Positions 1-47,769 of a stretch of 64,000 nucleotides of DNA are shown piece by piece. The position numbers and the translations under genes are program-made. The notes beneath the pieces were generated by a model. That model saw nothing but the letters and a program-made list of their open reading frames with translations. It was not told the DNA's origin and did not search any database. Source of the DNA: Candidatus Limnocylindrales bacterium (GTDB lineage Bacteria > Moduliflexota > Moduliflexia > Moduliflexales > JAUQPW01); assembly GCA_035559535.1 (NCBI GenBank), contig DATMBG010000051.1, forward strand, positions 248,001-312,000, in the 5' to 3' direction. Numbering within the stretch: position 1 is the stretch's first letter; every line of letters starts with the position of its first letter.

Positions 1-365
1 CGGCGGAACCTATGTCCATGATTCGAACAACTTTAGCCCAAAAGCGCGAAGAAAGTAAGGATAAACAAACCGTCTTGGGCCCGGCATTGGAAACCCAGAA
101 TCAGAAGGATCAGGAACTTCAAACCTTGGATTCCGGACCGGGTTGCCCTTTTTCGCAAATAGTGTCCGATGCCTTTGCCCATAATACCTCTTCATCTGGT
201 AAAGAGCCTGTTTGGACCGCAGAAGCTGAGAAACGGCTAGAACGGATTCCAGGCTTTGTAAGGCCTATGGTAAAAAAGGGTGTTGAGATGTACGCCAGGG
301 AACGGGGCTATAGCGAAATAAATGAAGCCGTTATGGATGAAGCTAGAGGAAGATTCGGCATGTGA
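1..365 (+). CDS. PCP_red (protochlorophyllide reductase C-terminal-like) domain protein; probably 5'-truncated by the window edge
   Basis: C-terminal WTAEAEKRLERIPGFVRPMVKKGVEMYARERG matches the PCP_red pattern W..EA..RL..IP.FVR. The frame is open back to position 3. Confidence 0.7.
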   Translation, partial: AEPMSMIRTTLAQKREESKDKQTVLGPALETQNQKDQELQTLDSGPGCPFSQIVSDAFAHNTSSSGKEPVWTAEAEKRLERIPGFVRPMVKKGVEMYARERGYSEINEAVMDEARGRFGM

Positions 366-10502: not shown

Positions 10503-11045
10503 ATGTCATCTATTCAAAGGACCATTAACCGGACTGTCTTAGAATTGGTTCAAGGAGATATAACCGAATTGGCGACCGATGCCATTGTCAATGCGGCCAA
10601 TACCGCCCTGATTCTCGGGTCTGGAGTAGCCGGAGCTATAAGGAAGAAAGGTGGACCTCGTATCCAGGAGGAATGCAACCGAATTGGAGGTACCCATGTG
10701 GGAGGGGCCGTGATTACAACGGGAGGAAATCTTCCTGCCAGATATGTTATCCACGCGGTAGGTCCTCGATGGGGAGAAGGGAATGAGGACGATAAACTTC
10801 GGCAGGCTACTTTAAACAGCTTAAAGCTGGCCGATCAGCATCAACTCAAAAGCATAGCCTTTCCGGCCATCAGTACCGGAGTTTTTGGTTTTCCCATGGA
10901 CCGGTGTGCTCGAATTATGCTTACCACGACCCGGGAATATCTTCAAGGAGATACAGGATTAGAGAAAGTAGTATTTTGTCTCTGGGATACTCCTGCCTTT
11001 GAAACCTTTCGGTCGGTTTTAGAAGAGTTATCTTCTGACATTTGA
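10503..11045 (+). CDS. Macro domain (ADP-ribose-binding/O-acetyl-ADP-ribose deacetylase-like) protein
   Basis: QGDIT, AIVNAAN, GSGVAGAI, VIHAVGP, SIAFPAISTGVFGFP. Confidence 0.9.
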   Translation: MSSIQRTINRTVLELVQGDITELATDAIVNAANTALILGSGVAGAIRKKGGPRIQEECNRIGGTHVGGAVITTGGNLPARYVIHAVGPRWGEGNEDDKLRQATLNSLKLADQHQLKSIAFPAISTGVFGFPMDRCARIMLTTTREYLQGDTGLEKVVFCLWDTPAFETFRSVLEELSSDI

Positions 11046-20677: not shown

Positions 20678-21067
20678 ATGGGATCGGAAAGTTGGCATGA
20701 ACCCTATGAAAAAATCAGTGAGAAAACCTTAAATATGTCCAGAGCAATTAAATCTCTCATGGAAGAGTTGGAAGCCATTGATTGGTACCAACAGCGGGTC
20801 GATGTATGTACAGATGAAGAGCTAAGAAAAATTCTGGCTCATAACCGCGATGAAGAAATGGAACATGCTGCCATGGTCCTGGAGTGGATTCGACGAAATA
20901 ATCCGACTTTTGAAGGACATTTGCGGACCTATCTCTTCAGTGAAGGAGAAATTACTCAAATAGAAGCCATAGAAATGAAGAATAGTAAACCCGGACCATC
21001 TTCAGAGAACGTTCGAACTTCTATTCCTAAAACCGTCGGAAGCTTAAAGCAGAGAAAGGAGAGTTAA
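20678..21067 (+). CDS. Encapsulated ferritin (EncFtn) cargo with C-terminal targeting peptide
   Basis: EELEAIDWYQQR and HNRDEEMEH ferroxidase motifs; C-terminal KTVGSLK; AAGGAG RBS. Confidence 0.9.
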   Translation: MGSESWHEPYEKISEKTLNMSRAIKSLMEELEAIDWYQQRVDVCTDEELRKILAHNRDEEMEHAAMVLEWIRRNNPTFEGHLRTYLFSEGEITQIEAIEMKNSKPGPSSENVRTSIPKTVGSLKQRKES

Positions 21068-21072
21068 TTGTT

Positions 21073-21882
21073 ATGAAATATCTCAATCGAGAAGCTGCCC
21101 CGATTAGCTCAAAGGTTTGGGAGGAAATTGATGAACTGGTTGTTTCCACGGCGAAAAGTTTATTGGTGGGGAGAAAATTGCTAGATGTGGAAGGCCCCCT
21201 CGGGCTCGGCTTTAAAGCCCTCGTTTCGAAAACAGAGCGGATAGCAGAAGCAGGACCCCCCCTGGCGGCTAAAATTCTCTGTAGTCCTACCCTTCCTATA
21301 CCCCAGATTTACAGTTCCTTTTCTTTAAGTATCAGCATGATCGAAGCCTATGAAACTTATCATCAACCTCTAGACCTGGATGCAGCATTTCAAGCCGCTA
21401 AAAACTGTATCCTTAAAGAGGATGAGCTGGTATTTTTCGGTTATGAAAGCCTCTCCATTACAGGTATTCTTAACACACCCGGTGTCCATAAGATCCCGTT
21501 GGGGGATTGGAGTCGAGTCGGTCAGGCCATCGAAGATGTGATCCAGGCGGCCAATCAACTGGATAAAGCAGGCTATCCGGGCCCCTATGCCCTGGCTCTG
21601 GCTTCACCTCTTTATAACAGCCTGTTTCGACTGTATAAAGACAGCGATGTTCTCCAAATCGAAAATCTACGTTCTCTGGTTACAGAAGGGATTTTTAAAA
21701 CCCCTGTGCTTCAAAACAAAGGAGTACTTTTAGATACGGTTAACGGTAACCAGATTATTCTGGGTCAGGATCTGATGACCTCGTTCTCCGGATTTGGAGA
21801 GGTTTTTTATGAATTTACTATCTCTGAAAGTCTGGTTCCAAATATTGGAACTCCAGAGGCCATTTGTATTATTTCTGCCTGA
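21073..21882 (+). CDS. Family 1 encapsulin shell protein (Linocin M18-like)
   Basis: MKYLNREAAPIS..VWEEID, GRKLLDVEGPLG, EDELVFFG, GYPGPYAL, ILGQDL; directly follows the cargo gene. Confidence 0.9.
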   Translation: MKYLNREAAPISSKVWEEIDELVVSTAKSLLVGRKLLDVEGPLGLGFKALVSKTERIAEAGPPLAAKILCSPTLPIPQIYSSFSLSISMIEAYETYHQPLDLDAAFQAAKNCILKEDELVFFGYESLSITGILNTPGVHKIPLGDWSRVGQAIEDVIQAANQLDKAGYPGPYALALASPLYNSLFRLYKDSDVLQIENLRSLVTEGIFKTPVLQNKGVLLDTVNGNQIILGQDLMTSFSGFGEVFYEFTISESLVPNIGTPEAICIISA

Positions 21883-26522: not shown

Positions 26523-27851
26523 ATGAATGACGACGATACAATATCTGCTAACGATCCCGAAAAGAGTTATAAAATCGAAGAAAAAGAACCTCCCCGTACC
26601 TTACCCGGGCCTAATGGAAATTTAAACTATCCGATTTCGCAACCCCCCATCAAACGGAAGATTTCTTTTACGAAAAATATTAAACGCAGGGTCCTTTATG
26701 GGCTTATCCTCGTTTTACTCGTTATAGGGGTGGCTTATGGGGTTAAACTTTATCACTTTTACTTAAATCATGAAACCACCGATAACGCCCAGGTAGAAGG
26801 TCGGATTATCACCATCAGTCCCAGGACTGCCGGGGTTGTAGAGAAAGTTTTGGTAGATGTAAACCAGCGTGTAAAAGCAGATCAATTGCTTGTACAATTG
26901 AATACCAGGCCTTTAGCTATTGAAGTAGAACAAGCGAAGGCAGCCGTTGAGGTCATCAAAGCCAAGTTAGCGTCTGCGCGCCTGTCGGTGCCCCTCGAGC
27001 AAAATCGGACAGATGCAAAAATCACAGAGGCCAGAGCACAAGCAGAAGCCATGAGAAAAAGTCTTGCAACGGCTCAAGCGGAGTTAACCCGTATAGAGAA
27101 GGAAACCCTCGGGTATAAAGCTCAAATGGAAAAGGCGGAACTGGATCGAAGGCGGTTAGAGCAACTCCACGCGAAAGGAGTCATTCCTCAGCAACAGCTC
27201 GATGCAGCGATCTCAGACTACAATGTGGCTCGGTCTAATTATGAAGCCTCCCTGGCTTCTCAACGGGTCGCCGCGGCAAAGATTGAGTCTCTTAAAAACC
27301 AGATTAAACAGACCGAAGCCCAGATAGTCTTGGCTCAAACGGGTCATACCGAGACGGAAATGAAAGGTCAGGAAGCTAAATCTCTGGAGGCCGAGCTGGC
27401 CCAGGCCGAGGCGAATCTGGACGCAGCCCTGCTCAGACTCTCCTATACCGAAATTAGAGCCCCGGTAGATGGAATTATTGGGAAGAGATCGGTGGAAGTC
27501 GGAGAAAGGGTCAATGTAGGTCAGCCTTTAATGGCCCTTATTCCCGATGAGGTCTGGATTGTTGCAAATTTGAAGGAAACTCAACTGGAGTATGTCCGTG
27601 TCGGTCAACCGGTGGAATTTACAGTGGATGCCTATCCAGGAAAGGTATTTAAGGGAAAGGTAGAAAGTATCAGCCCTGCAACCGGTGCGAAATTTTCCCT
27701 TTTACCTCCCGATAATGCCACCGGTAACTTTACCAAGGTTGTTCAACGGGTCCCTGTGCGAATTACCATCGAGGGAGACCCTGAGTATCCCATCCGACCT
27801 GGGATGTCTGTGTTTGTAACCATTGATATCAGTAGTGCCCGTGCAAAGTAA
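26523..27851 (+). CDS. emrA: EmrA/HlyD family membrane fusion protein
   Basis: TDNAQV, IRAPVDG, ANLKETQL, FSLLPPDNATGNFTKVVQRVPVRI. Confidence 0.9.
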   Translation: MNDDDTISANDPEKSYKIEEKEPPRTLPGPNGNLNYPISQPPIKRKISFTKNIKRRVLYGLILVLLVIGVAYGVKLYHFYLNHETTDNAQVEGRIITISPRTAGVVEKVLVDVNQRVKADQLLVQLNTRPLAIEVEQAKAAVEVIKAKLASARLSVPLEQNRTDAKITEARAQAEAMRKSLATAQAELTRIEKETLGYKAQMEKAELDRRRLEQLHAKGVIPQQQLDAAISDYNVARSNYEASLASQRVAAAKIESLKNQIKQTEAQIVLAQTGHTETEMKGQEAKSLEAELAQAEANLDAALLRLSYTEIRAPVDGIIGKRSVEVGERVNVGQPLMALIPDEVWIVANLKETQLEYVRVGQPVEFTVDAYPGKVFKGKVESISPATGAKFSLLPPDNATGNFTKVVQRVPVRITIEGDPEYPIRPGMSVFVTIDISSARAK

Positions 27852-27932
27852 ACAGGCAAAAGGCGAAAGGGCAAATGAAATCTTTCTTTTACCTTTCGCC
27901 TTTTGCCTTTTGATTTTTACCTTTTGTCTTCT

Positions 27933-29474
27933 GTGAAACCTCAGCACAAATGGATTATCATCTTGATAGCCGTTCTGGGAACCCTTCTCCAGGCTATCGA
28001 TGTGAGCATCGTAAACGTAGCATTACCCCATATGATGGGTAATCTGGGGGCGACGCTGGACGAAATCAACTGGGTGGTTACAGGTTATATTATCGCCAAT
28101 GTCATTGTTCTTCCTTTAACAGGCTGGTTTACGGCCTGGTTAGGACGAAAAAGATTTTTAGCATTATCTATCGGAATCTTTACCGTCGCCTCTTTTTTTT
28201 GTGGAATTGCCTGGAGCGTCGAAACCCTTGTTTTCTTTCGAATCATTCAGGGAATGGGAGGAGGGGCCCTTATCCCAAGCTCCCAATCCCTCCTCATGGA
28301 AACCTTTCCCCCTAAAGAACAGGGAGGGGCCATGGCGGCTTTTGGAGTAGGCACCATGGTCGGTCCCACGTTGGGACCGACCTTAGGAGGTTGGATTACC
28401 GATAATTATAATTGGCCCTGGATCTTTTATATCAACATCCCCGTCGGGGGCCTTGCCTTACTGCTGGCCTATTTCTTTCTACAAGATTCTACCCACTCTA
28501 AAAACCCAGCCCCCCAGGTAGACTACCTGGGGATCATCTTACTGGCTATAGGCGTTGGATGTATGCAGGTGATCCTGGAGCTTGGGGAACGGAAAGACTG
28601 GTTCGAATCCAATGGAATTAAAACACTCAGTCTTTTAACCGGGCTGGCTTTAATCAGCTTCGTCTGGTGGGAGCTCCGAATTGATCATCCTGCGGTCAAC
28701 TTGAAGGTTTTGACTAACCGTTCTCTTTGGGTCGGTACTGTGATCGCTACCTTTTTAGGAGTCGGACTCATGGGACCTACCTTTCTACTTCCAGTTTTTT
28801 TACAAACCCTGTTAAATTACACGGCCTGGCAGACCGGAAAGGCGATCCTCCTCAGTTCCATTTCTACCGCCATTGCTATGTTTATTTCGGGTAAACTGAT
28901 GACCAGAATTTCCCCTCAATACGTCATTGCTATGGGAATAGGTGCTTTTAGCCTGGGTCTCTACAAAATGTCCCAGTTTACGCTGGAAATTGGGACCTCC
29001 GATCTGGTCGTTCCTCAGATCCTACGAGGAATTGGAATCGGCTTTATGTTTGTTCCCCTGAGTATAGCAGCCCTCAGTACCCTGGAAAAAAAAGACATGG
29101 CCAGTGCCTCCGGCATTTACACCTTCATGCGCCAGACCGGTGGGAGTTTCGGTATCGCGATTCTCGTCACCTTTCTCAAACAAAGGGAAATTTTTCACCG
29201 ATCCATTCTGAGTGAATACCTCCATCCTCTAAATCCTTTAACCACCCAACGATTGCAAATACTGGAACAGGGACTTCTGGCCAAAGGCATTAATCCAGAA
29301 TCCTCGAGTAAGATCGCTTTGAACCTCTTAGATCATACCGTAACCCGACAGGCTTTACTTCTCTCCTTTCGAGACGCTTTTCTGCTCATCGCAGTTCTGA
29401 TCATAATCACCTTTCCTTTCCTTTTTCTCCTGCGACGAAAGAAAAGCTCCGTTCAGATTGTCCTGGGAGATTAA
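27933..29474 (+). CDS. emrB: DHA2/EmrB family MFS efflux permease
   Basis: DVSIVNVALP, WVVTGY, GPTLGGWITDNYNWPWIFYINIPVG, about 14 TMs; start taken at GTG 27933. Confidence 0.9.
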   Translation: MKPQHKWIIILIAVLGTLLQAIDVSIVNVALPHMMGNLGATLDEINWVVTGYIIANVIVLPLTGWFTAWLGRKRFLALSIGIFTVASFFCGIAWSVETLVFFRIIQGMGGGALIPSSQSLLMETFPPKEQGGAMAAFGVGTMVGPTLGPTLGGWITDNYNWPWIFYINIPVGGLALLLAYFFLQDSTHSKNPAPQVDYLGIILLAIGVGCMQVILELGERKDWFESNGIKTLSLLTGLALISFVWWELRIDHPAVNLKVLTNRSLWVGTVIATFLGVGLMGPTFLLPVFLQTLLNYTAWQTGKAILLSSISTAIAMFISGKLMTRISPQYVIAMGIGAFSLGLYKMSQFTLEIGTSDLVVPQILRGIGIGFMFVPLSIAALSTLEKKDMASASGIYTFMRQTGGSFGIAILVTFLKQREIFHRSILSEYLHPLNPLTTQRLQILEQGLLAKGINPESSSKIALNLLDHTVTRQALLLSFRDAFLLIAVLIIITFPFLFLLRRKKSSVQIVLGD

Positions 29475-30291: not shown

Positions 30292-30469
30292 AGAAGTGGG
30301 GGGAGTGTAAGAGTATGGGAGTGGGGGAGTGGGAGAGTATGGGGTAATATTTCTTATCCTCCCATACTTCCATACCTTGAAAAGTCTTTTCATTTAGAAA
30401 GTAACTGGCAAGTATACTCCCCCACTCCCATACTCTTACACTCCCACACCTCCATACTCCCACACTTCT
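30292..30469. repeat. Repeat element copy 1: octamer arms around a conserved unique core
   Basis: 40-bp core 30379-30418 is identical to 37737-37776. Confidence 0.75.
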
Positions 30470-32273
30470 ACGAGGGTTTTCCTGCAAGGTAAGCTAATCC
30501 AAATGAAAAAAAGGCATTCACTAAAAGCCAGGTTTTATCCAGCAGAAAATTTCCAGGAATATAAGCAACTGTTGCCGAAGTTAGAAGAGCATCTACCAAC
30601 AGATGACCGGTCAGACCCAGGGTAAAGCCCAGGGCAAAACGGTTGAGGGATTTTGTGCTTAACAAGGTTATGATCAAAAGAAGGGGGAACATCGCGCTAT
30701 GAAACAACGGGTTTAAATCTGAAATCCTCCCCAACACAGAATAATCTAGGTCTGGAAAAGCTCGGGTAAAGGGTGTTATACCCTTGCTTAATAGGCCAGG
30801 TAATGGAAAAAAATTCAGGAAAAAAAGTCCTGAGGAAGCCCACAGGAGCCCAAGCCAGAAAAGAAGTCGGGGAAGCTTTTTGGGCAGGTGAAATCCTCTA
30901 AGGAGTTTAAAATAGATCCAGGCTAATAAGATCGCCACCAGGAGATACTTTAATCTGACAGGTATGATCATCGTTTGCGGAACAAAGATATCCGGTCGGA
31001 GGGAAGAGACGGCAGCGGCTGCATTGAGGAGTCCGGCGCCGTATTTCTCATCCGGGTTTTCTCCTGGAACGACGTTTGAAAGAGACTCTCCCTGTTGGGT
31101 ATGCCGGGTCGCACTGGCCTTGAGTATTTTCTCTACTTCATCGGGATTTTTCACTCCCAGGGAGATGATCAGAGCCGCTGTACCCGCTACATGGGGTGCT
31201 GCCATGGAAGTTCCCTGGAAATATTCATAACCATCCCGGGTTGGATCCATGTATCCAATGGTATTTTGAAGGATTCCATAACTGATACCCTTACTGGTAT
31301 CTCCACCCGGCGCAGCCAGGTCGATCTCCGGACCGTAGCTGGAATAAGGGGCCAGGGTTCCATTCGGTCCCAGGGCAGAGACACCTATACAATGAGGATC
31401 GGAGGCCGGAAAGCTCACCCCTCTACGACCTGAATTCCCGGCTGCACAGACCAGGGTCACACCTTTATCATGGGCATAGGCCATGGCTTCTTGAATAGTT
31501 CTACTGGGGAAAAAGCCCCCTAAACTTAAATTGATAACCTGTGCCCCGTGATCTGCCGCATATTGGATAGCTTCAGCAATATCGGCTATATTCCCGAACC
31601 CAAACCGATTCAAAACTTTTAACGGCATGATGGTAGCTTCATAGGCTATTCCTGCCACCCCAATCCTATTATGGGTTGACTGGGCAATAGTTCCGGCTAC
31701 ATGGGTTCCATGACCGTTATCATCATTGGGATGGGTATCATCATCGATAAAGTCATAACCCTCTGTAAATTGAGTATTTGCCAGATCTTGGACCCGGTGG
31801 TAAACCCCTTTTCGGTCTTGATAATCTTCATAGGCAACTCCTGTATCGATAACAGCCACAATAACCCCTTTTCCATGGGTTTTGTCCCAAGCTTCCGGCA
31901 TCTGAATGAACTTCATGTTCCATTGTTTATCAAAAAGTGGATCATTGGGAATTTCAAAAGCCTGATAAAGATAATTGGGTTCTACATATTCAACAGTAGC
32001 CTCGGCAGCTAAAGCCTGTAGGAGTTTTTGAAGCTTATCAGAATCCATCCCTGCCTTTGAAAATCGGGTAAGGGCTTCCGGCTTTGAGAAAATGCTGTTA
32101 TAGGTTAATTGAATTCCATACTTATGGGCAATTTTCTCAATCTCTTCTTGGGGAAGATTGTCTTTAAAATTAACAATTACCTCCCCATCATCCTCCTGGG
32201 CAGCACTTTGTAGGGGGAAAAAAGATAGGAAACCGATTAGATAATAAACTATAAAATACCAACGATAAATCAT
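30468..32273 (-). CDS. Subtilisin-like S8 serine peptidase with prodomain and C-terminal multi-TM region
   Basis: VAVIDTG (Asp), HGTHVAGTI (His), AAGN, GTSMAAPHVAG (Ser); signal peptide; hydrophobic C-terminus. Confidence 0.92.
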   Translation of the reverse strand: MIYRWYFIVYYLIGFLSFFPLQSAAQEDDGEVIVNFKDNLPQEEIEKIAHKYGIQLTYNSIFSKPEALTRFSKAGMDSDKLQKLLQALAAEATVEYVEPNYLYQAFEIPNDPLFDKQWNMKFIQMPEAWDKTHGKGVIVAVIDTGVAYEDYQDRKGVYHRVQDLANTQFTEGYDFIDDDTHPNDDNGHGTHVAGTIAQSTHNRIGVAGIAYEATIMPLKVLNRFGFGNIADIAEAIQYAADHGAQVINLSLGGFFPSRTIQEAMAYAHDKGVTLVCAAGNSGRRGVSFPASDPHCIGVSALGPNGTLAPYSSYGPEIDLAAPGGDTSKGISYGILQNTIGYMDPTRDGYEYFQGTSMAAPHVAGTAALIISLGVKNPDEVEKILKASATRHTQQGESLSNVVPGENPDEKYGAGLLNAAAAVSSLRPDIFVPQTMIIPVRLKYLLVAILLAWIYFKLLRGFHLPKKLPRLLFWLGLLWASSGLFFLNFFPLPGLLSKGITPFTRAFPDLDYSVLGRISDLNPLFHSAMFPLLLIITLLSTKSLNRFALGFTLGLTGHLLVDALLTSATVAYIPGNFLLDKTWLLVNAFFSFGLAYLAGKPS

Positions 32274-32378: not shown

Positions 32379-33695
32379 TTAATCATAATACTCGAGTCCT
32401 AGATGGGTAATTAATTCCTCCCCCCGGATATAGCGTAAGGTATTTTTAAGCTTCATAAGCTGGATGAAAAGATCATGTTCAGGGTAAAGCTCAGGGGCAC
32501 ACATGGGACTTTTAAAGTAAAACGAGAGCCATTCCTGGATTCCACGCATATTGCATCTTTGAGCCAAATCCATGAAGAGAGCCAGATCCAGAACGATGGG
32601 GGCTGCCAGAATGCTATCTCTGCAGAGGAAGTTAATCTTAATTTGCATGGGATATCCCAGCCAACCAAAGATATCGATATTATCCCAACCTTCCTTGTTA
32701 TCCCCCCGGGGTGGATAGTAATGAATGTGGACCTGATGAATAACCTTCTCATAAAGTTCCGGATAGAGATCTGGCTGAAGGATGTAATTAAGGGCCGATA
32801 GCTTGCTTTCTTCCTTGGTTTTGAAAGAAGCCGGATCATCCAGGACTTCTCCGTCTCGATTTCCGAGAAGGTTAGTAGAAAACCAACCCTTTAGACCCAG
32901 AACTCTGGATTTTAAACCGGGGGCAAGGATGGTTTTCATAAGGGTTTGTCCGGTTTTAAAATCCTTCCCGGCTATGGGAACCCCATTCTGATTGGATAAC
33001 TCGATCAAAGCCGGTATATCAATCGTGAGGTTAGGAGCTCCATTGGCAAAGGGGACTCCTGAACAAAGTGCGGCATAGGCGTAAATCATGCTGGGGGCAA
33101 TTTTGGGATGATTTTCTTTTAATCCCGATTCAAAGTTCTGGAGACTCTGATGGACTTCATCGGGTTCTAAAAAAGACTCTGTACTGGCACACCAAATCAT
33201 AACCATCCGGGATAAATTCCACTCTTTTTTGAAACGCTGAATATCTTCCATAAGTTGATGGGCTAAATCCATCTTGTTCTGCCCTTTTTTGATATTATCA
33301 CCGGAAAGTCGTTTAACATAAGCCTGATCAAATACAGCGCGCCAGGGGACGATAGCTTCCAGTTCCTTCCGAACCTGATCCAGTAGACTTTTCTCAATAA
33401 CACCCGCTTTCAAAGCCGCCTGATAACCGTTATCTTGAAAGATATCCCAGGCTCCAAAAACCAGATCTTCCAGTTTAGCTAAAGGGACGAAATCTTTAAT
33501 CTTAGGAACCCGCTTATCGGTTCGCTTTCCCAGACGAATCGTTCCGAGCTGGGTGAGAGATCCAATGGGGTGGCCCAGACCTTTCTTAATAAGCTCAACA
33601 CCCGCTATCAAAGTGGTACTGACGGCCCCTAATCCCGGAAGTAAAATCCCCAATCGACCTTCCGCAGGTTTAATAGAAATGCCTTTTTCTATCAT
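32379..33695 (-). CDS. ino1: myo-Inositol-1-phosphate synthase
   Basis: GLGAV, GKDFKTGQT, NLLGNRDG, GDNKEGWD, DSILAAP, LSFYFKSP. Confidence 0.92.
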   Translation of the reverse strand: MIEKGISIKPAEGRLGILLPGLGAVSTTLIAGVELIKKGLGHPIGSLTQLGTIRLGKRTDKRVPKIKDFVPLAKLEDLVFGAWDIFQDNGYQAALKAGVIEKSLLDQVRKELEAIVPWRAVFDQAYVKRLSGDNIKKGQNKMDLAHQLMEDIQRFKKEWNLSRMVMIWCASTESFLEPDEVHQSLQNFESGLKENHPKIAPSMIYAYAALCSGVPFANGAPNLTIDIPALIELSNQNGVPIAGKDFKTGQTLMKTILAPGLKSRVLGLKGWFSTNLLGNRDGEVLDDPASFKTKEESKLSALNYILQPDLYPELYEKVIHQVHIHYYPPRGDNKEGWDNIDIFGWLGYPMQIKINFLCRDSILAAPIVLDLALFMDLAQRCNMRGIQEWLSFYFKSPMCAPELYPEHDLFIQLMKLKNTLRYIRGEELITHLGLEYYD

Positions 33696-33751
33696 GAAAG
33701 TAGCATCAAGCTAGAGAAATACAAAGTATAGGGAAGGTGAGCTAAAGTGCT

Positions 33752-33958
33752 TAGTACTTTGTAAAGTTAGATTTGAGTAACCGTTCTGCCCTCACCCCCA
33801 ACCCCTCCTCCCCCCCTCTTCCATCCCCCGTGGACGGGGGATGGAAGGAGGGTATTTGGGAAGTTGATCCGGAGATCCTCCAGCTTCCCTCTCCCACGTT
33901 GTGGGAGAGGGGTCAGGGGTGAGGGAAAGCGATGCAAAATTAGCTTTACAAAGTCCTA
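33752..33958. mobile_element. MITE-like non-autonomous element with TIRs and TA at both ends
   Basis: Left end tagtactttgtaaagttag; right end ttagctttacaaagtccta; homologous to 6162-6379. Confidence 0.65.
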
Positions 33959-34122
33959 AAGAGCTAAAGTTAATTTTCTACTTTAGACACCTCCTTATAC
34001 CCTGTGTTCCCCTAGCTCGGATTAAAATTTAGATCTATAAAGGTATGGGAATATAGTTTTTTAAATACGACCCCTAATTTGAGGATGTCAATGGAAATAA
34101 GGAAGGAAGTACCACAAAAAAG

Positions 34123-34150
34123 TTGACTTTATCCAAAAGGTAGATATAAA
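34123..34150 (+). promoter_or_regulatory. Putative sigma70 promoter of the cheA-like/cheY unit
   Basis: TTGACT-16 nt-TATAAA; GGAGG RBS upstream of the GTG start at 34204. Confidence 0.4.
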
Positions 34151-34203
34151 GAATATAACTTTTAAAGGAACAAAAGTAAAACCCTCTCAGGGAGGATGGG
34201 GTT

Positions 34204-37200
34204 GTGAAGAGAATCAAGCTTTATGGTGTTAAAGATCCAAATATTTCAAGCCAGTTGATACTAGCTAAAGAAAAAGGGTTTTTTGATGAAGAAGGTCTGC
34301 AAGTGGAATATCGACTTCTTCCCTCCGGAACCATAATGCCGGATGAAGTGATTCAGGCCAAGGAGAAGCCTTTTGCTTTTACTCAGACTCCGGTTACCAC
34401 GCTCATTCTTCAGGATCGAGGCCTGGATGTTAAAATTGTGGCCCCTCTGGCAGATATTTCTGGAACTCAACAGGTTGTGATTCGGGAGGATTCTGGAATT
34501 GTAACTCCCAGAGATTTAGAGGGAAAGAAAATAGGAATGGCGCAAGGGGCCGCGGTTTATATTGCCCTTCAGAGTATGGCCCGGGAGTTTGGAGTAGATC
34601 TGACGCGGATTACCTTTGTAGACCTGCTTCCTGCTCAACAGTTAGAAGCACTACAACGGGGAGAAATCGACGGAATGGCGTGTTGGGAACCCTGGACCAG
34701 CCGGGCCCAGGCCATAGGAGGTAAATTTTATTTCTCCGGTTCCCGTTCGGCCATACCGGGCTATGAGGAAGAGATTAACTGGTTGGTAGACCAAAGTGTC
34801 CTCATGGTTTTGAACGAGAATCTTCAACAACATCCGGATACGGTTAAAGCTCTGATTCGGGCCTTTAAAAAAGCAACGGATTTCATTAATGAGAATCCAG
34901 AAGAAGCGGCCATGATTTTATCGGGACCCCTGTCTGCTGATAAAATCGAGCTGGATAAAATTCTGGCCCTCAATAAATACTCCATGAAGATGGATAACCT
35001 CTTTAAAATAGGGCTTCTCTCCTTTCGAGAGCTCCTATTTCAAAATGGGGTCATCTCCACCATGCCCGAGGAAAAGAGATTGTATACAACGGAATGGTTG
35101 GAGGCTGTAGAGCCTTCTCTGGTTCTCATAACCCGTGAAGGGGAGGTTGTGGAGGAAGAAGAAAATGAAGAGTTTTTGGAAATTTTCTTTGAGGAGGCCG
35201 GTGATATCCTGGAAGGTCTGGAGAAAGGAATCCTGGCCCTTGAGAAAGCCCCTGGAGATCGAAATATTCTAAGAAATGTTATAACGGCCTCCCACACGTT
35301 AAAAGGTAATTCAGGATTCCTCGGATTTGAAAAGATTAATTCCCTGAGCCGCCATATGGAAGAGACCCTTAAGGCCGTTCAGAAATCTGACGGAATTATT
35401 ACCCAGGGTTTGATTACCGTTCTCTTTAATTGCCTGGATACTCTTCGGAGATTGGTCAATGACTATAAAACAGATAAAACCAGCCCCCTGGATCTCACAC
35501 CGCTATTAACAAAAATTAATCAACTGGTATCGGAGTCCTTAACCGAAACAGCCGTTTCCCTGGTTCATCAGCAGGAAGAAGGTATTGAACTGATTGGATA
35601 TGAAGAAGTAAAACTTAAGGAAGCTCAAGAAAAAGGAAAAAGAGTATTCCGAATAGAGATAGAATTTGCACCCGATTGGTCTCTGCACTCTGCAGGTGCT
35701 TTTATGGTAACTCGCAAGCTCTCCCGATTGGGGGAGGTTATCAAGGTGGACCCCCCTTTAGGGAGTGGTGAACTAAAAAAAACAAATCACTTCCAACTCA
35801 TCCTGGCCAGTAGCGCACCTGAGGAGTTGATCCAACGTCGGGGAAAGGTAGCCGCAGTTGTTCAGACTATTCGTATATCTCCCTTTGCACTTCCCTCCTT
35901 ATCTGAAACCCACAGGGTAGAGGTCCTTTCACCGGGTTCAGAGCCTGTGACCTCCTATTCCGTAGACGAGGAGTTCGAAATCTCTTCCTATACTCCTGTT
36001 ACTTCTACACCGTCGGCTAAAAAAACCTTACGGGTAGACTATCAACTACTGGATGAAATTATGAACGTGGTTGGGGAACTGGTTATCGGAGGAGCCACCC
36101 TTTCCCAAGGTCTAAGTAAATTAAATGCCATTTTTCCTACCGGAGAAACAGCCCGTTTGATCGAGCAACTTATGAAGACCAATACGCTGGTTCGAAAAAA
36201 TTTGTTGAACCTACAAGAGAATATCATGAAGGTTCGTATGATGCCGATCGATGTGGTATTTAAACGTTTCCCTCGATTGGTCAGAGATCTGGCTCTAAAA
36301 AAAGGTAAAGAAGTGAAGCTGGAAATAACCGGAGAGCACACCGAACTGGATAAAGCCATCCTGGATCTGATCGGGGAGCCTTTAACGAAACTTCTTCGAA
36401 GTATTGTGGAATACGGAATTGAACCCCCCTCTCTACGAGCCCAACTGGGTAAACCGACCACAGGTAGAGTAAGTCTCAACTCTTACCATGCCGGTAATCA
36501 AATTATTATCGAAATTTCCGATGATGGCCGAGGAACCGACCTGGTTCGGGTGAAAAACCTGGCCGTCGAACATAAATTTTTTACCCCCGAGGAAGCTGAA
36601 AATCTCTCCATTTCGGACCTTTTTAATGTATTCTTTAATCGGGGATTGGTCATCCCTGAAAGCGAGGAAAACTCTTTTCTGTTCGGTCCAGGAATCCAGA
36701 GTGCTCGTAAGGTCATCGAAGAGCTTAATGGCACCCTAGAAGTCGAAAGCCAACTGAATAAGGGAACCCGATTTATCGTTAAACTCCCTTTAACTTTAGC
36801 CATTATTCAAGCCCTTCTTCTGGAAATCGGAAACCGGGTTTTTGCCATTCCCTTATCGCTGGTGGTAGAAGTCCTGAGAATTTCAACAAAAAACATCGAA
36901 ATCATAGGAAAACAGGAAGTTTTTCAACTCAGAGGTCAGGTCATTCACCTCCTGAGACCTTACGATATTCTGGGAGTTCCTCCACCTAAAATCCAGAATG
37001 AGAAATTATTTGTGGTGGTGGTACGGGTTGCACGGGATGAATTGGTGGGGATTGTCACAGACCAACCTTTAGAAAAAGAAGAACTGGTCATCAAATCCTT
37101 GGATACTAAAATTGTCAAAACAGATATTATTTCCAGTGCTTCCAAACTGGGAGACGGACGGGTGATTCTCATTTTGGATGTACCCGCCCTCATTAGCAAG

Positions 37201-37221
37201 ATGTATAACCGGGAGTACTAA
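34204..37221 (+). CDS. cheA: Solute-binding domain (SsuA/NMT1-like)-Hpt-P2-dimerisation-degenerate HATPase-CheW fusion; CheA-like protein
   Basis: N-terminal AKEKGFF.EEGL, DLEGKKIG, GEIDGMACWEP. Hpt HTLKG. P3 LRVD..LLDEIMNVVGELVI..RMMP..FPRLVRDL. DDGRG, PLTLAII, and CheW-like C-terminus LGDGRVILILDV. Confidence 0.85.
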   Translation: MKRIKLYGVKDPNISSQLILAKEKGFFDEEGLQVEYRLLPSGTIMPDEVIQAKEKPFAFTQTPVTTLILQDRGLDVKIVAPLADISGTQQVVIREDSGIVTPRDLEGKKIGMAQGAAVYIALQSMAREFGVDLTRITFVDLLPAQQLEALQRGEIDGMACWEPWTSRAQAIGGKFYFSGSRSAIPGYEEEINWLVDQSVLMVLNENLQQHPDTVKALIRAFKKATDFINENPEEAAMILSGPLSADKIELDKILALNKYSMKMDNLFKIGLLSFRELLFQNGVISTMPEEKRLYTTEWLEAVEPSLVLITREGEVVEEEENEEFLEIFFEEAGDILEGLEKGILALEKAPGDRNILRNVITASHTLKGNSGFLGFEKINSLSRHMEETLKAVQKSDGIITQGLITVLFNCLDTLRRLVNDYKTDKTSPLDLTPLLTKINQLVSESLTETAVSLVHQQEEGIELIGYEEVKLKEAQEKGKRVFRIEIEFAPDWSLHSAGAFMVTRKLSRLGEVIKVDPPLGSGELKKTNHFQLILASSAPEELIQRRGKVAAVVQTIRISPFALPSLSETHRVEVLSPGSEPVTSYSVDEEFEISSYTPVTSTPSAKKTLRVDYQLLDEIMNVVGELVIGGATLSQGLSKLNAIFPTGETARLIEQLMKTNTLVRKNLLNLQENIMKVRMMPIDVVFKRFPRLVRDLALKKGKEVKLEITGEHTELDKAILDLIGEPLTKLLRSIVEYGIEPPSLRAQLGKPTTGRVSLNSYHAGNQIIIEISDDGRGTDLVRVKNLAVEHKFFTPEEAENLSISDLFNVFFNRGLVIPESEENSFLFGPGIQSARKVIEELNGTLEVESQLNKGTRFIVKLPLTLAIIQALLLEIGNRVFAIPLSLVVEVLRISTKNIEIIGKQEVFQLRGQVIHLLRPYDILGVPPPKIQNEKLFVVVVRVARDELVGIVTDQPLEKEELVIKSLDTKIVKTDIISSASKLGDGRVILILDVPALISKMYNREY

Positions 37222-37245
37222 AACTGAGTACCCGGTACTCCAATT

Positions 37246-37647
37246 ATGGCCGAGATTCTCAAAAAAGATGGAAAAAAATTTCGATTTCTCTTGGTCGACG
37301 ATTCTCGATTTGCGCGTATAAGCTTAAGTAAGGTGGTCGAACAGGTGGGAGGGGAAGTCGTTGGGGAAGCTACGTCGGGTGAGGAAGCTCTCCGTCGTTT
37401 TGAAGAACTCAGACCCGACATCGTGACCATGGATATGTCCTTACCCGATACGGACGGAATTACCCTGGTCCGACGTTTTATGGGAATAAATCCCCAGACC
37501 CTTATTATTCTGATCAGTGGAATCTCCCATGAGGAGGTAATCGAAGAGGCTTTACGTGCAGGAGCCGAGCATTTTATTTCTAAACCCCTAAACCTAAATA
37601 AAGCCGTTGAGATCGTACGGTGGGTTTTGGAAGAATCAGACCGATAA
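37246..37647 (+). CDS. cheY: Single-domain response regulator (CheY-like)
   Basis: LVDD, PDIVTMD phosphoacceptor Asp, ISG, SKP; 24 bp downstream of the CheA-like gene. Confidence 0.82.
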   Translation: MAEILKKDGKKFRFLLVDDSRFARISLSKVVEQVGGEVVGEATSGEEALRRFEELRPDIVTMDMSLPDTDGITLVRRFMGINPQTLIILISGISHEEVIEEALRAGAEHFISKPLNLNKAVEIVRWVLEESDR

Positions 37648-37652
37648 AAACA

Positions 37653-37832
37653 AGGGTGGGAGTGTGGGGATGTGGAAGTGTGGGGGTATGGGAGTATGGG
37701 GGTAATATTTCTTATACTCTTATACTTCCATACTTCGAAAAGTCTTTTCATTTAGAAAGTAACTGGCAAGTATACTTCTACACTCCCACACTCCCATACT
37801 TTCACACTCCCATACCCCCACACCTCCACCCT
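37653..37832. repeat. Repeat element copy 2: octamer arms around a conserved unique core; likely acts as terminator between convergent genes
   Basis: 40-bp core is identical to 30379-30418; followed by a T-run. Confidence 0.75.
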
Positions 37833-37838
37833 ATTTTT

Positions 37839-38753
37839 TTAAACGAATGTTAACCAGTTATACTTATCTTCGGTTTTGCCACTGGTAATAGCAAAAAATT
37901 TAGCCTGAATCCGTTCGGTGATAGGCCCACGGGTACCGCTTCCAATCTTGATTTTATCCACAGAACGGATAGGAGTAATTTCGGCCGCCGTGCCTGTAAA
38001 AAAGATTTCATCTGCGATATACAAGAACTCCCGAAGTAAGGGTTGTTCGCGAACTTCATAACCAAAATCTCGGGCTATGGTTATGGCACATTCTCGGGTA
38101 ATACCCGGTAGGATAGATTGAGCCGTCAAAGGGGTATAAATAATCCCGTTTTTAATGATAAACAAATTTTCACCACTTCCCTCGCTCAGGTAACCAAATA
38201 TATCCAGGCTGATTCCTTCTCGATAGCCATCTTCCAGGGCTTCCAAAACCATCAACTGGGAACTTAAATAATTTCCACCAGCTTTAGCCATAGAGGGAAT
38301 GGTTCCGGGAGCCACTCTTCTCCAGGAGGAGACACATACATCTACCCCGTTTTCAATGGCTTCTGACCCTAAATAGGCCCCCCATTCGATCACAGCAATG
38401 GCCACATTCACCGGACATGTCTTTGGATTCACGCCGATTTCCTTATATCCCCGAAAGGCCACCGGTCGAATATAACAGCTCTTTAAGCGGTTTACCCGGA
38501 TGGTCTCTAAAATGGCATCCCGTAACTCGGCTCTGGAATAAGGAATGTCCATGCGATAAATTTTGGCAGAATCATAAAGACGGGTCAAATGCTGATCTAA
38601 ACAGAAGACCGCCGGACCTTTAGCTGTATTATAACAACGAAGCCCTTCAAAGACACTGGAGCCATAATGTACCACATGGGATAATACATGGATTTTAGCG
38701 TCTTGCCAGGGAACAAACTTTCCGTCAAACCAAATTTTTTCAGATTCTTTCAT
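37839..38753 (-). CDS. ilvE: Branched-chain amino acid aminotransferase
   Basis: [45 protein letters not shown]; start taken at MKESEK. Confidence 0.95.
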
Positions 38754-38937
38754 TGAATATTCAGTGATGAATAATGAGTGATTAGTCATGAGTAAGGGGT
38801 AGAGAATTCAGAACTCAGAATTACCGCCTAATCGCTTTTGACCATGACTCATGGGATTAGAACAGATTTAGAACTCGAAATCACTTCTAACTCCTGGCTT
38901 CTGACTTCTAACCTCACTCATAGCTCATCACCCAGGC

Positions 38938-47235: not shown

Positions 47236-47769
47236 TTAAAGATTCGCTTTTATTTCATCCAGAACTTTGCTGAAGCTCATATAGCTTCCTTTATCAAAGA
47301 GAGCTATGATCACCTTTTCAAGGGAGGTATCTCCTTTAAGGTGATCGCAAATAACTCCCAGCATGATGCGGGCGCATTCTTCTACTGGAAAACCTGCAAC
47401 TCCGGTTCCTATAGCCGGAAAAGCAATACTTTTCAGATTCCTTTCTTCGGCCCTAAGAAGACTATTTTTTGTACATTTAGCAAGGCTATCCCTACTGGGT
47501 TTGGCACCCTGTTCTGCGCCCACTGCATGAATAACATAAATAGAAGGAAGATTTCCCGCTGTGGTGACAATAGCCTCTCCCACCGGAGCCGGTCCTTGGG
47601 CGATAGCCTCTTCTTCGATAATTCGACCCCCTTTGGTCTTGATGGCACTGGCAACCCCGGATCCCATCCAAAGTTTATCATTAGCCGCGCTTACAATGGC
47701 ATCGACTTCCAATTCGGTTAAATCACCTTGAATAACAGAAAGGGTTGTATTACGGATCGTCAAACTCAT
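47236..47769 (-). CDS. Macro domain protein (second paralog)
   Basis: QGDLT, AIVSAAN, GSGVASAI, VIHAVG, SIAFPAIGTGVAGFP. Confidence 0.88.
   Translation of the reverse strand: MSLTIRNTTLSVIQGDLTELEVDAIVSAANDKLWMGSGVASAIKTKGGRIIEEEAIAQGPAPVGEAIVTTAGNLPSIYVIHAVGAEQGAKPSRDSLAKCTKNSLLRAEERNLKSIAFPAIGTGVAGFPVEECARIMLGVICDHLKGDTSLEKVIIALFDKGSYMSFSKVLDEIKANL

Follow-up and report, generated by a model that had tools for sequence, protein, structure and literature searches.

A sensor-fused CheA-family protein of Moduliflexota with a degenerate Mg-ATP site, a candidate pseudokinase

How does a CheA-type histidine kinase take part in signalling when the residues that should hold Mg2+ and the ATP phosphates have been replaced and the phosphorylatable histidine has been kept? 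This question is raised by a gene in a 64,000-nucleotide stretch of DNA from Candidatus Limnocylindrales bacterium, placed by GTDB in Moduliflexota (NCBI GenBank assembly GCA_035559535.1, contig DATMBG010000051.1, positions 248,001 to 312,000 of the forward strand). The whole stretch is called the window here, and positions are counted along it. The gene, which belongs to an uncultured lineage of filamentous bacteria, encodes a protein in which a solute-binding-type domain (NMT1) precedes the P1 to P5 domains of a CheA. Tentatively, with a confidence that falls somewhat short of even, it is read here as a conserved CheA pseudokinase, a ligand-gated phosphotransfer protein that would be charged in trans; it probably relays phosphate signals rather than generating them.

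The Mg-ATP site of the P4 domain

Residue equivalences were taken from an alignment to the CheA proteins of Thermotoga maritima (1b3q, 3ja6) and Escherichia coli (6s1k), and E. coli CheA numbering was adopted because numbering the residues of the E. coli chain gives the same positions for the conserved motifs as PMC10410752. A preliminary description of this DNA had quoted strings for the N, G1, F and G2 boxes and for the Hpt motif HTLKG, and all of them are recovered in frame by translation of 34204-37221 and 36340-36792. It had also held that the N-box Asn is replaced by Ser and that both His are lost, and the residue-by-residue alignment of P4 to the solved CheAs confirms these substitutions as N380S, H376K and H384Y. 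The gene and the P4 features concerned are as follows.

34204..37221, plus strand: whole gene, 1005 aa, GTG start, an NMT1-Hpt-P2-P3-P4-P5 CheA-family protein (open reading frame, ORF; Pfam).
36235..36807, plus strand: P4, HATPase_c-type, residues 678-868, full-size, with a degenerate Mg-ATP site (Pfam, alignment, model).
36379..36417, plus strand: N box PLTKLLRSIVEYG, degenerate, with H376K, N380S (Ser733, codon AGT at 36400-36402) and H384Y.
36520..36534, plus strand: G1 box DDGRG, intact (D420, D421, G422, G424).
36634..36705, plus strand: F box, ATP lid and G2 box, remodelled (FNRGLVI at 36634-36654, FLFGPGIQSA at 36676-36705), with G470L and R471F; G472 and G474 are kept.

Outside the N box, the F box carries P457R, F459L, S460V and T461I, and the G2 box carries G470L, R471F and M475I. 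The residues retained in P4 are R379, D420, D421, G422, G424, F455, G458, G472, G474 and G498-T499, and the earlier statement that the G1 box and the HTLKG motif (His codon at 35293) persist in an unbroken frame, here 1005 codons at 34204-37221 on the plus strand, is equally sound. The other two motif claims are accurate with one refinement each. The F-box string is present as quoted, but F459L is in itself a frequent natural variant, found in 7 of 88 CheA matches in the alignment census described below and in 31 of 120 short CheA matches; and the G2 box is degenerate at G470L and R471F, yet two of its three glycines (G472 and G474) survive in the window copy.

In PMC10410752, His376 and Asn380 are assigned to Mg2+ coordination, and Asp420/Gly422, Gly470/472/474 and Thr499 are given as motif residues, while PMC12767644 places D420 against the adenine and H376 and R379 against the phosphates. 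Set against the changed and the kept residues, these assignments indicate that the phosphate/Mg2+ half of the pocket is broken and that its adenine half (D420, T499) is intact. The Mg-ATP-binding residues expected in the P4 of a CheA are therefore absent at H376K, N380S and G470L, and also changed at H384Y and R471F. A HATPase_c domain without Mg2+/ATP residues beside an intact first Hpt is, according to the definition given in PMC10782961, the arrangement of CheA3-type proteins.

The rarity of these changes was established by comparison with other CheAs. A search of a 5.8-billion-protein set listed 120 relatives, which were aligned with the query by MAFFT (121 sequences); all 88 non-family CheA matches keep H376, R379, N380, H384, G385, the G1 residues, G470, R471, G472 and G474. 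A second search, limited to short proteins and to region 607-1005, gave 120 further matches, and the 117 non-family ones all keep H376, N380, H384, D420, G422, G470, G472 and G474, the three that deviate from this signature being fragments of the same NMT1-CheA family. H376, N380 and H384 are thus retained in 205 of 205 non-family relatives (88 + 117), and by this count the P4 substitutions are more than chance. The G1 box is invariant in an 80-sequence alignment.

The protein as a whole is recognizable as a CheA. The domain order Hpt, (P2), H-kinase_dim, HATPase_c, CheW is present with every Pfam score above its gathering score: NMT1/THI5-like at residues 17-235 (7.5e-30), Hpt at 323-415 (1.3e-10), P2 at 481-547 (1.7e-08), H-kinase_dim at 607-677 (3.8e-13), HATPase_c at 741-864 (3.5e-10) and CheW-like at 869-998 (2.3e-22). 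The HATPase_c match is weak, with 40.7 bits and the profile entered only at position 20. A phmmer search of the PDB matches CheA P3-P5 at 9.4e-73, with 1b3q and 3ja6 from T. maritima both at about 1e-72. The NCBIfam CheA equivalogs are not reached (NF041336, 300 bits against a cutoff of 950; NF007835, 283 against 793), a shortfall that is weak evidence because both models are lineage-specific.

P4 has also kept its size. The full-length AlphaFold2 (AF2) model, built from an 80-row alignment, has a mean pLDDT of 72 and a pTM of 0.46 with a poor NMT1 part, and was used for P4 only. The P4 block reaches a pLDDT of 79-92 outside the lid, and the lid, at 62-65, is its lowest part. Foldseek superposes the P4 model on T. 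maritima P4 crystal structures with a target-normalised TM of 0.85-0.93, an rmsd of 1.7-3.6 Å and about 41% identity, which identifies P4 as a full-size GHKL-type domain; it aligns to T. maritima P4 across about 185 columns, and the truncated kinase domain with missing helices of CheA3-type proteins is not seen.

A Moduliflexota family with two subclades

The matches P0002-P0033 share the NMT1-CheA architecture and come from sources named Candidatus Vecturithrix and candidate division KSB3. Judged from these relatives, the gene is a member of a lineage-specific, Moduliflexota (KSB3)-restricted family of sensor-fused CheAs. A tree of P3-P5 (quick IQ-TREE mode, trait columns left in) divides it into two sister clades, with SH-aLRT values of 100 for the family and 99 each for subclades A and B, and with stems of 0.58 (A) and 0.40 (B). 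Subclade A comprises P0001-P0008, with 75-100% identity to the query (P0002 is the window protein), and subclade B comprises 25 sequences with about 50-54% identity to it. A genome scan with an alignment of the family-specific N-terminal domain returned 16 loci, none of them from the genome of the window. Locus L001, from a metagenome-assembled genome (MAG), belongs to subclade A, with 96% identity over the N-terminal domain and the same P4 motifs as the window, and L002-L008 are subclade-B orthologues from Ca. Moduliflexus, Ca. Vecturithrix and a KSB3 MAG, covering two classes of Ca. Moduliflexota. A 498-aa subclade-B-like protein (P0271), on a 45-kb contig, consists of P3-P4-P5 only and may be either a naturally short protein or the result of a split gene call.

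The two subclades have lost different parts of the pocket. All eight subclade-A sequences carry N380S and H384Y, with K at position 376 in five and N in three; they keep R379 (8/8), G472 (8/8) and, in five of eight, G474. In subclade B, the N box is mostly intact (N380 in 23/25, H376 in 24/25, H384 in 22/25) and it is the lid that is lost, with R471 in none of the 25, G472 in one, G458 in none, and the PGFST motif gone. N-box erosion is nevertheless sporadic in subclade B: N380H is seen in P0022 and P0028, which are sisters, as well as in L008; P0029 has H376L and L005 has H376Y. In the genomes, the H376Y copy lies at L005:9941-12967 (UASB270), and the N380H copy, which adds H384Q, at L008:9119-12154 (KSB3 DOLJORAL78). 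The G1 motif DDGxG is invariant in all 33 family members, and the window copy and L001-L008 all retain the threonine of the GT block.

The eroded lid positions differ, being G470 in subclade A and G472 and G458 in subclade B. Because each subclade eroded different lid residues, the constraint on the lid would already have been relaxed before the two diverged. Within P4, conservation in the family is lowest in the F-to-G2 segment (52-61% in A, 49% within B), whereas in canonical CheAs conservation is highest there (73% versus 63% for P4 overall).

Selection on P4 was estimated as dN/dS, the ratio of non-synonymous to synonymous rates, by the Nei-Gojobori method for the window versus L001, a single DNA pair for subclade A. 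P4 gives 0.048 (43.5 synonymous and 8.5 non-synonymous differences), P3 and P5 0.029 each, NMT1 0.099, P1 0.131 and the whole gene 0.085. In four subclade-B pairs, P4 ranges over 0.023-0.075, and the 72-77% conservation of the P4 protein sequence between P0001 and P0006-P0008 is consistent with these low values. Since dN/dS is low, the degenerate P4 is being maintained and is not decaying. The preliminary description had asked whether orthologues share the substitutions under purifying selection, which holds for subclade A (8/8, and L001, with the P4 value above) and not for subclade B, where 23 of 25 keep N380. Its converse, orthologues with intact boxes beside a neutrally decaying copy, is likewise found only in half: the distant orthologues of subclade B have an intact N box (23/25), yet the window copy shows purifying selection. 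The N-terminal sensor, the lineage restriction of the family, the lid loss common with subclade B and the lack of receptor or adaptation genes nearby go beyond what had been described earlier.

Phosphotransfer and the proposed charging of His364 in trans

The remaining CheA domains and the neighbouring response regulator are the following.

35170..35448, plus strand: P1/Hpt, residues 323-415, with His364 (codon 35293-35295), Lys367 and Glu386 (Pfam, PDB P1 matches).
35644..35844, plus strand: P2 CheY-docking domain, residues 481-547 (Pfam P2, 34.9 bits against a cutoff of 23).
36022..36234, plus strand: P3 dimerisation domain, residues 607-677 (Pfam).
36808..37197, plus strand: P5 CheW-like domain, residues 869-998 (Pfam CheW, 79.5 bits).
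37246..37647, plus strand: CheY-type single-domain response regulator, 133 aa, 24 nt downstream of the CheA-family gene (Pfam, PDB).

His364, Lys367 and the Glu at +22 (Glu386, needed for the kinase-type phosphorylation of P1) are kept in 121 of 121 aligned sequences; the phosphorylatable P1 His of a CheA, with its Lys and Glu partners, is thus present. The P2 block is modelled by AF2 with a pLDDT of 85-94. The catalytic residues of CheY (D18, D19, D63, S91, K113) are intact and invariant in five of five aligned orthologues; across five orthologous loci the identity of the protein is 65-95%, CheY proteins are its best matches in the PDB (2.9e-30 and 1.6e-27), and its gene lies directly after the NMT1-CheA gene in the window and in all eight loci L001-L008. 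With the P1 His/Lys/Glu, P2 and the CheY active site all intact, phosphoryl groups may still move between His364 and CheY.

According to the mechanism proposed here, a cytoplasmic SsuA/NMT1-type domain fused before P1-P2-P3-P4-P5 would act through the dedicated CheY encoded next to it. P4 is interpreted as a pseudokinase because the residues holding Mg2+ and the ATP phosphates are lost in subclade A; it would lack Mg-ATP-dependent phosphorylation of P1 and have a structural or regulatory role, perhaps with nucleotide binding retained. His364 would most likely be charged in trans, by other CheA kinases of such genomes or by a receiver domain, and the amount of phosphate passed would be set by the fused sensor and not by receptors of the methyl-accepting chemotaxis protein (MCP) type. 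Charging in trans is favoured because the P1 triad is intact, CheA homologues are many in the phylum, and CheA3/CheA4 offer a precedent. Two genomes of the phylum are listed in Table S8 of PMC4312070 with 17 and 19 CheA genes (COG0643), and the same paper describes gliding, non-flagellated filaments with more than 60 MCPs. The pseudokinase that the preliminary description had proposed is supported comparatively, as a conserved, non-decaying protein with a broken Mg-ATP site and an intact Hpt His.

In CheA3 of Cereibacter (Rhodobacter) sphaeroides, the HATPase_c is degenerate and autophosphorylation does not occur, CheA4 acting on its behalf (PMC10782961). The likeness to the window protein, which is one of described features, consists of an intact N-terminal Hpt, a C-terminal CheW-like domain, a HATPase_c without Mg2+/ATP residues and phosphorylation in trans, the last being only proposed for the window protein (CheA3 features from PMC10782961 and PMC6829392). 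The comparison with CheA3/CheA4 had been made in the preliminary description, and it holds for the degenerate HATPase_c beside an intact Hpt but fails elsewhere. The CheA3 kinase domain lacks one whole helix and parts of two others, whereas the P4 of the window is full-size; CheA4 shares the operon of CheA3, whereas no core kinase lies in the 64 kb and the short relatives are at most 53% identical and subclade-B-like; and CheA3, encoded in a chemoreceptor cluster, is not fused to a sensor, contrary to the window protein, which is so fused and has no such cluster nearby.

Pseudo-histidine kinases kept for non-catalytic signalling are known in DivL of Caulobacter and RcsD of enterobacteria, and in RcsD a kinase-like region without catalysis stands beside a functional Hpt that passes phosphate on. 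Both belong to other kinase classes (HisKA type, membrane-bound) and not to CheA, and their likeness to the window protein is functional only. A degenerate kinase domain in CheA3 and pseudo-histidine kinases were therefore already on record. What is new is a full-size P4 under purifying selection with point losses in its Mg-ATP site, a graded series of such losses across living relatives, the fusion to a solute-binding-type sensor, and an orphan CheA-CheY pair outside any chemosensory cluster. If confirmed as a pseudokinase, the protein would be a second and structurally different case after CheA3, reached by stepwise loss, first of the lid and then of the N box; the subclade-B and window proteins would then form a natural pair for dissecting the contribution of each motif and the role of a dead P4.

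Several observations weigh against a pseudokinase charged in trans. The selection estimate for subclade A comes from the one pair named above, and the CheA counts of 17 and 19 were obtained for subclade-B hosts elsewhere in the phylum and not for the genome of the window. A partner kinase was not found in the operon, in the 64-kb window or in the flanks of L001, and the short-protein search yielded no subclade-A-specific short core kinase: its top three matches are subclade-B-like fragments with 52-53% identity, the rest being ordinary CheA pieces at about 38-45%. The retention of G1, the GT block, R379, G472 and G474, together with a constraint on P4 as strong as that on P3 and P5, also fits an active kinase of unorthodox type, in which Ser or water may complete the Mg2+ site, or Lys at 376 may replace His.

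Such a kinase is the foremost of the alternatives, and it is considered unlikely without being remote. P4 would be working with an unorthodox nucleotide site, its lid having been remodelled early and the Mg2+ ligands later replaced in subclade A (Ser733, Glu736, Lys729). Strong purifying selection on P4 (0.048) would follow naturally, as would the retention of G1 (33/33), R379, G472 and G474 within subclade A at the frequencies given above, and of the GT threonine; P1, P2 and CheY form a full phosphotransfer set and no other kinase lies nearby, and PMC10410752 reports a view that G2 is unimportant for nucleotide affinity. However, N380 and H376 are the very residues named there for Mg2+ coordination and are invariant in 205 of 205 other CheAs, and three N-box residues have been altered together with G470 and R471. 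In addition, the lid evolves faster than the rest of P4 in the family, and the sporadic N-box erosion in subclade B is the pattern expected if catalysis is dispensable.

A less probable explanation, given a low chance, is that the protein serves as a phosphate sink or buffer: CheY would be phosphorylated elsewhere, by another kinase or acetyl phosphate, and would return the phosphate to His364 under modulation by the sensor. Intact Hpt, P2 and CheY next to a dead-looking P4 would suit this role, sink roles of CheA-associated modules are discussed in PMC10782961, and KSB3 organisms are described as fermenters in PMC4312070. A phosphohistidine without an exit route would nevertheless saturate stoichiometrically, the tight conservation of P3, P4 and P5 would be left without explanation, and no phosphatase domain was detected in the protein by Pfam.

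The third alternative, in which the protein works without phosphorylation, either as a scaffold or as a dominant-negative partner that enters arrays or forms heterodimers with active CheAs and dampens their activity, is improbable. It would agree with the conservation of P3 and P5 (dN/dS of 0.029 each) and with the many CheA and CheW paralogues in genomes of the phylum. Nevertheless, a pure scaffold would not need His364, Lys367, Glu386, P2 and a dedicated CheY, all of which are conserved, no receptor or CheW genes lie nearby, and heterodimers with other CheAs are unlikely because P3 is only about 34% identical to that of the nearest canonical CheAs.

A decaying pseudogene copy of CheA, the only one of these alternatives counted as excluded and one of negligible probability, would account for several degraded catalytic motifs and is contradicted by the open frame of 1005 codons, by substitutions common to orthologues down to 75% identity, by dN/dS values of 0.085 overall and 0.048 in P4, and by the conserved partner CheY.

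The fused sensor and its genomic setting

The domain placed before P1 is the following.

34204..35103, plus strand: NMT1/SsuA/TauA-type class II solute-binding fold, residues 1-300 (Pfam, NCBIfam, AF2, Foldseek).

Modelled separately, residues 1-300 reach an AF2 pLDDT of 97.1 in a class II binding-protein fold, and the closest solved structures found by Foldseek are TauA/SsuA, with a TM of about 0.8. Together with the Pfam E-value of 7.5e-30, this identifies a class II periplasmic-binding-protein fold of the NMT1 family. The other marks of a substrate-binding protein (export signal, ABC context, SsuA_fam score) are missing. The domain scores 105 bits with NCBIfam SsuA_fam TIGR01728, below the cutoff of 163.5; it starts at residue 2-17 of the longest possible ORF, the first strand beginning at residue 2, which leaves no room for an export signal; and no ABC transporter genes were found by Pfam scan adjoining the NMT1-CheA gene in the window, an MFS transporter and an HlyD-type membrane-fusion gene being found about 5-8 kb upstream (26523-29474). 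From the modelled fold and its position, the domain is presumed to be a cytoplasmic sensor. A comparable intracellular regulatory ligand sensor with the fold of the NMT1/SsuA/CmpA group is the C-terminal domain of a cyanobacterial bicarbonate transporter (PDB 9uak, Foldseek TM 0.75), which is fused to an ABC ATPase, whereas that of the window is fused to a CheA. Complex prediction of the NMT1 domain with P1 and with P3-P5 scored 0.00, which is no answer, and was used neither way.

The N-terminal domain is the most conserved part of the family, with 68% identity between subclades A and B against 40% for P1. Among 1.84 billion cluster representatives, the NMT1-CheA family appears as a single one (P0012), followed by NMT1-receiver fusions (P0122, P0123, P0125, P0138) and then by secreted binding proteins with 35-44% identity. 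The same Moduliflexota genomes carry NMT1-receiver (NMT1-REC) paralogues at L009-L016 (e.g., L009:9995-12618), of 459-508 aa and with 50-52% identity in the NMT1 domain, and at four of these eight loci a phosphopentomutase gene (DeoB, 550 bits) and an Smr-domain gene follow directly.

No chemosensory cluster surrounds the gene. The domain scan took 55 of the 72 window ORFs of at least 110 aa, the other 17 being duplicates or nested in longer ORFs, and among these 55 there is no MCPsignal, stand-alone CheW, CheB, CheR or second HATPase_c. MCPsignal, stand-alone CheW, CheB and CheR are likewise absent from the scanned ORFs (non-overlapping, at least 90 aa, within 10 kb on each side) of L001, L002, L005 and L008. 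Within the window and these four loci, the gene is therefore not encoded with the chemoreceptor, CheW and adaptation genes expected of a CheA. Compared with the canonical CheAs of E. coli and T. maritima, the window protein is alike in its P1-P2-P3-P4-P5 order, its Hpt His/Lys/Glu and its adjacent CheY, and differs in H376K, N380S, H384Y, G470L and R471F, in its N-terminal sensor and in the lack of MCP, CheW, CheB or CheR genes nearby. The flanking genes are on the opposite strand and look functionally unrelated, encoding a myo-inositol-1-phosphate synthase (32379-33695) and a class IV aminotransferase (37839-38789). A promoter and terminator scan of 33500-38000 gave 8 promoter-like and 6 terminator-like sites, not above shuffled sequences, and is silent on the operon.

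In subclade B, the setting is different. The order glgC-like, NMT1-CheA, cheY, phosphoglucomutase-like is conserved in seven of seven loci (L002-L008, e.g., L002:8099-15242), the glgC-like gene encoding a GlgC-like glucose-1-phosphate adenylyltransferase, and a CHASE2-sigma54 activator gene lies divergently upstream in all seven; subclade A (window, L001) retains only cheY of this order. L005 and L007 add a gene for a GlgX-like isoamylase; further upstream are pgk, tpi and secG. This setting suggests a Che-like control of glycogen or phosphosugar metabolism by the NMT1-CheA/CheY pair. If so, carbon-storage metabolism would seem to be under Che-like control in the filaments that cause bulking in anaerobic digesters.

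An extension of the pseudokinase reading, speculative and itself rather unlikely, is that the protein is a receptor-independent, one-protein chemosensory module, in which a metabolite would be sensed directly and the dead P4 would act as a regulatory or nucleotide-sensing gate between His364 and CheY. The family would have begun as a glycogen/phosphosugar regulator, would have lost its ATP lid first, and would then have lost its Mg-ATP site in the lineage of the window; the different lid residues eroded in A and B would mean that catalysis was under relaxed constraint before the subclades separated. As to the ligand, our guess is an anionic metabolite, such as a sugar phosphate or a sulfonate.

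According to the recent genome-wide survey in PMC10782961, a sensor domain is missing from CheA, and of its domains HATPase_c is both the best conserved and the one that defines its role. The NMT1-CheA family departs from both statements, as it has a built-in sensor and includes one subclade with a conserved, apparently non-catalytic kinase domain. The terms NMT1, SBP, PF09084, Moduliflex and KSB3 are not mentioned in the main text or three supplements of PMC10782961, and neither a printed description of an NMT1-CheA fusion nor a relevant paper on a CheA pseudokinase was found in the literature searched.

Other genes of the window deserve a brief mention. At 20678-21882, genes for an encapsulated-ferritin-like protein (EncFtn, 129 aa) and, directly after it, an encapsulin shell protein (Linocin_M18, 269 aa) form a cargo-shell nanocompartment pair. 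A radical SAM/SPASM protein with a C-terminal PCP_red (protochlorophyllide-reductase 57 kD) domain is encoded at 983-2308, and PCP_red also terminates the partial ORF at the start of the window (3-365). The gene at 30468-32273 joins an S8 subtilase to a DUF5942 membrane region at the C terminus, and it is conserved in L001 beside the same neighbours. Finally, two separate stand-alone Macro-domain proteins are encoded within the 64 kb, at 10503-11045 and 47236-47769.

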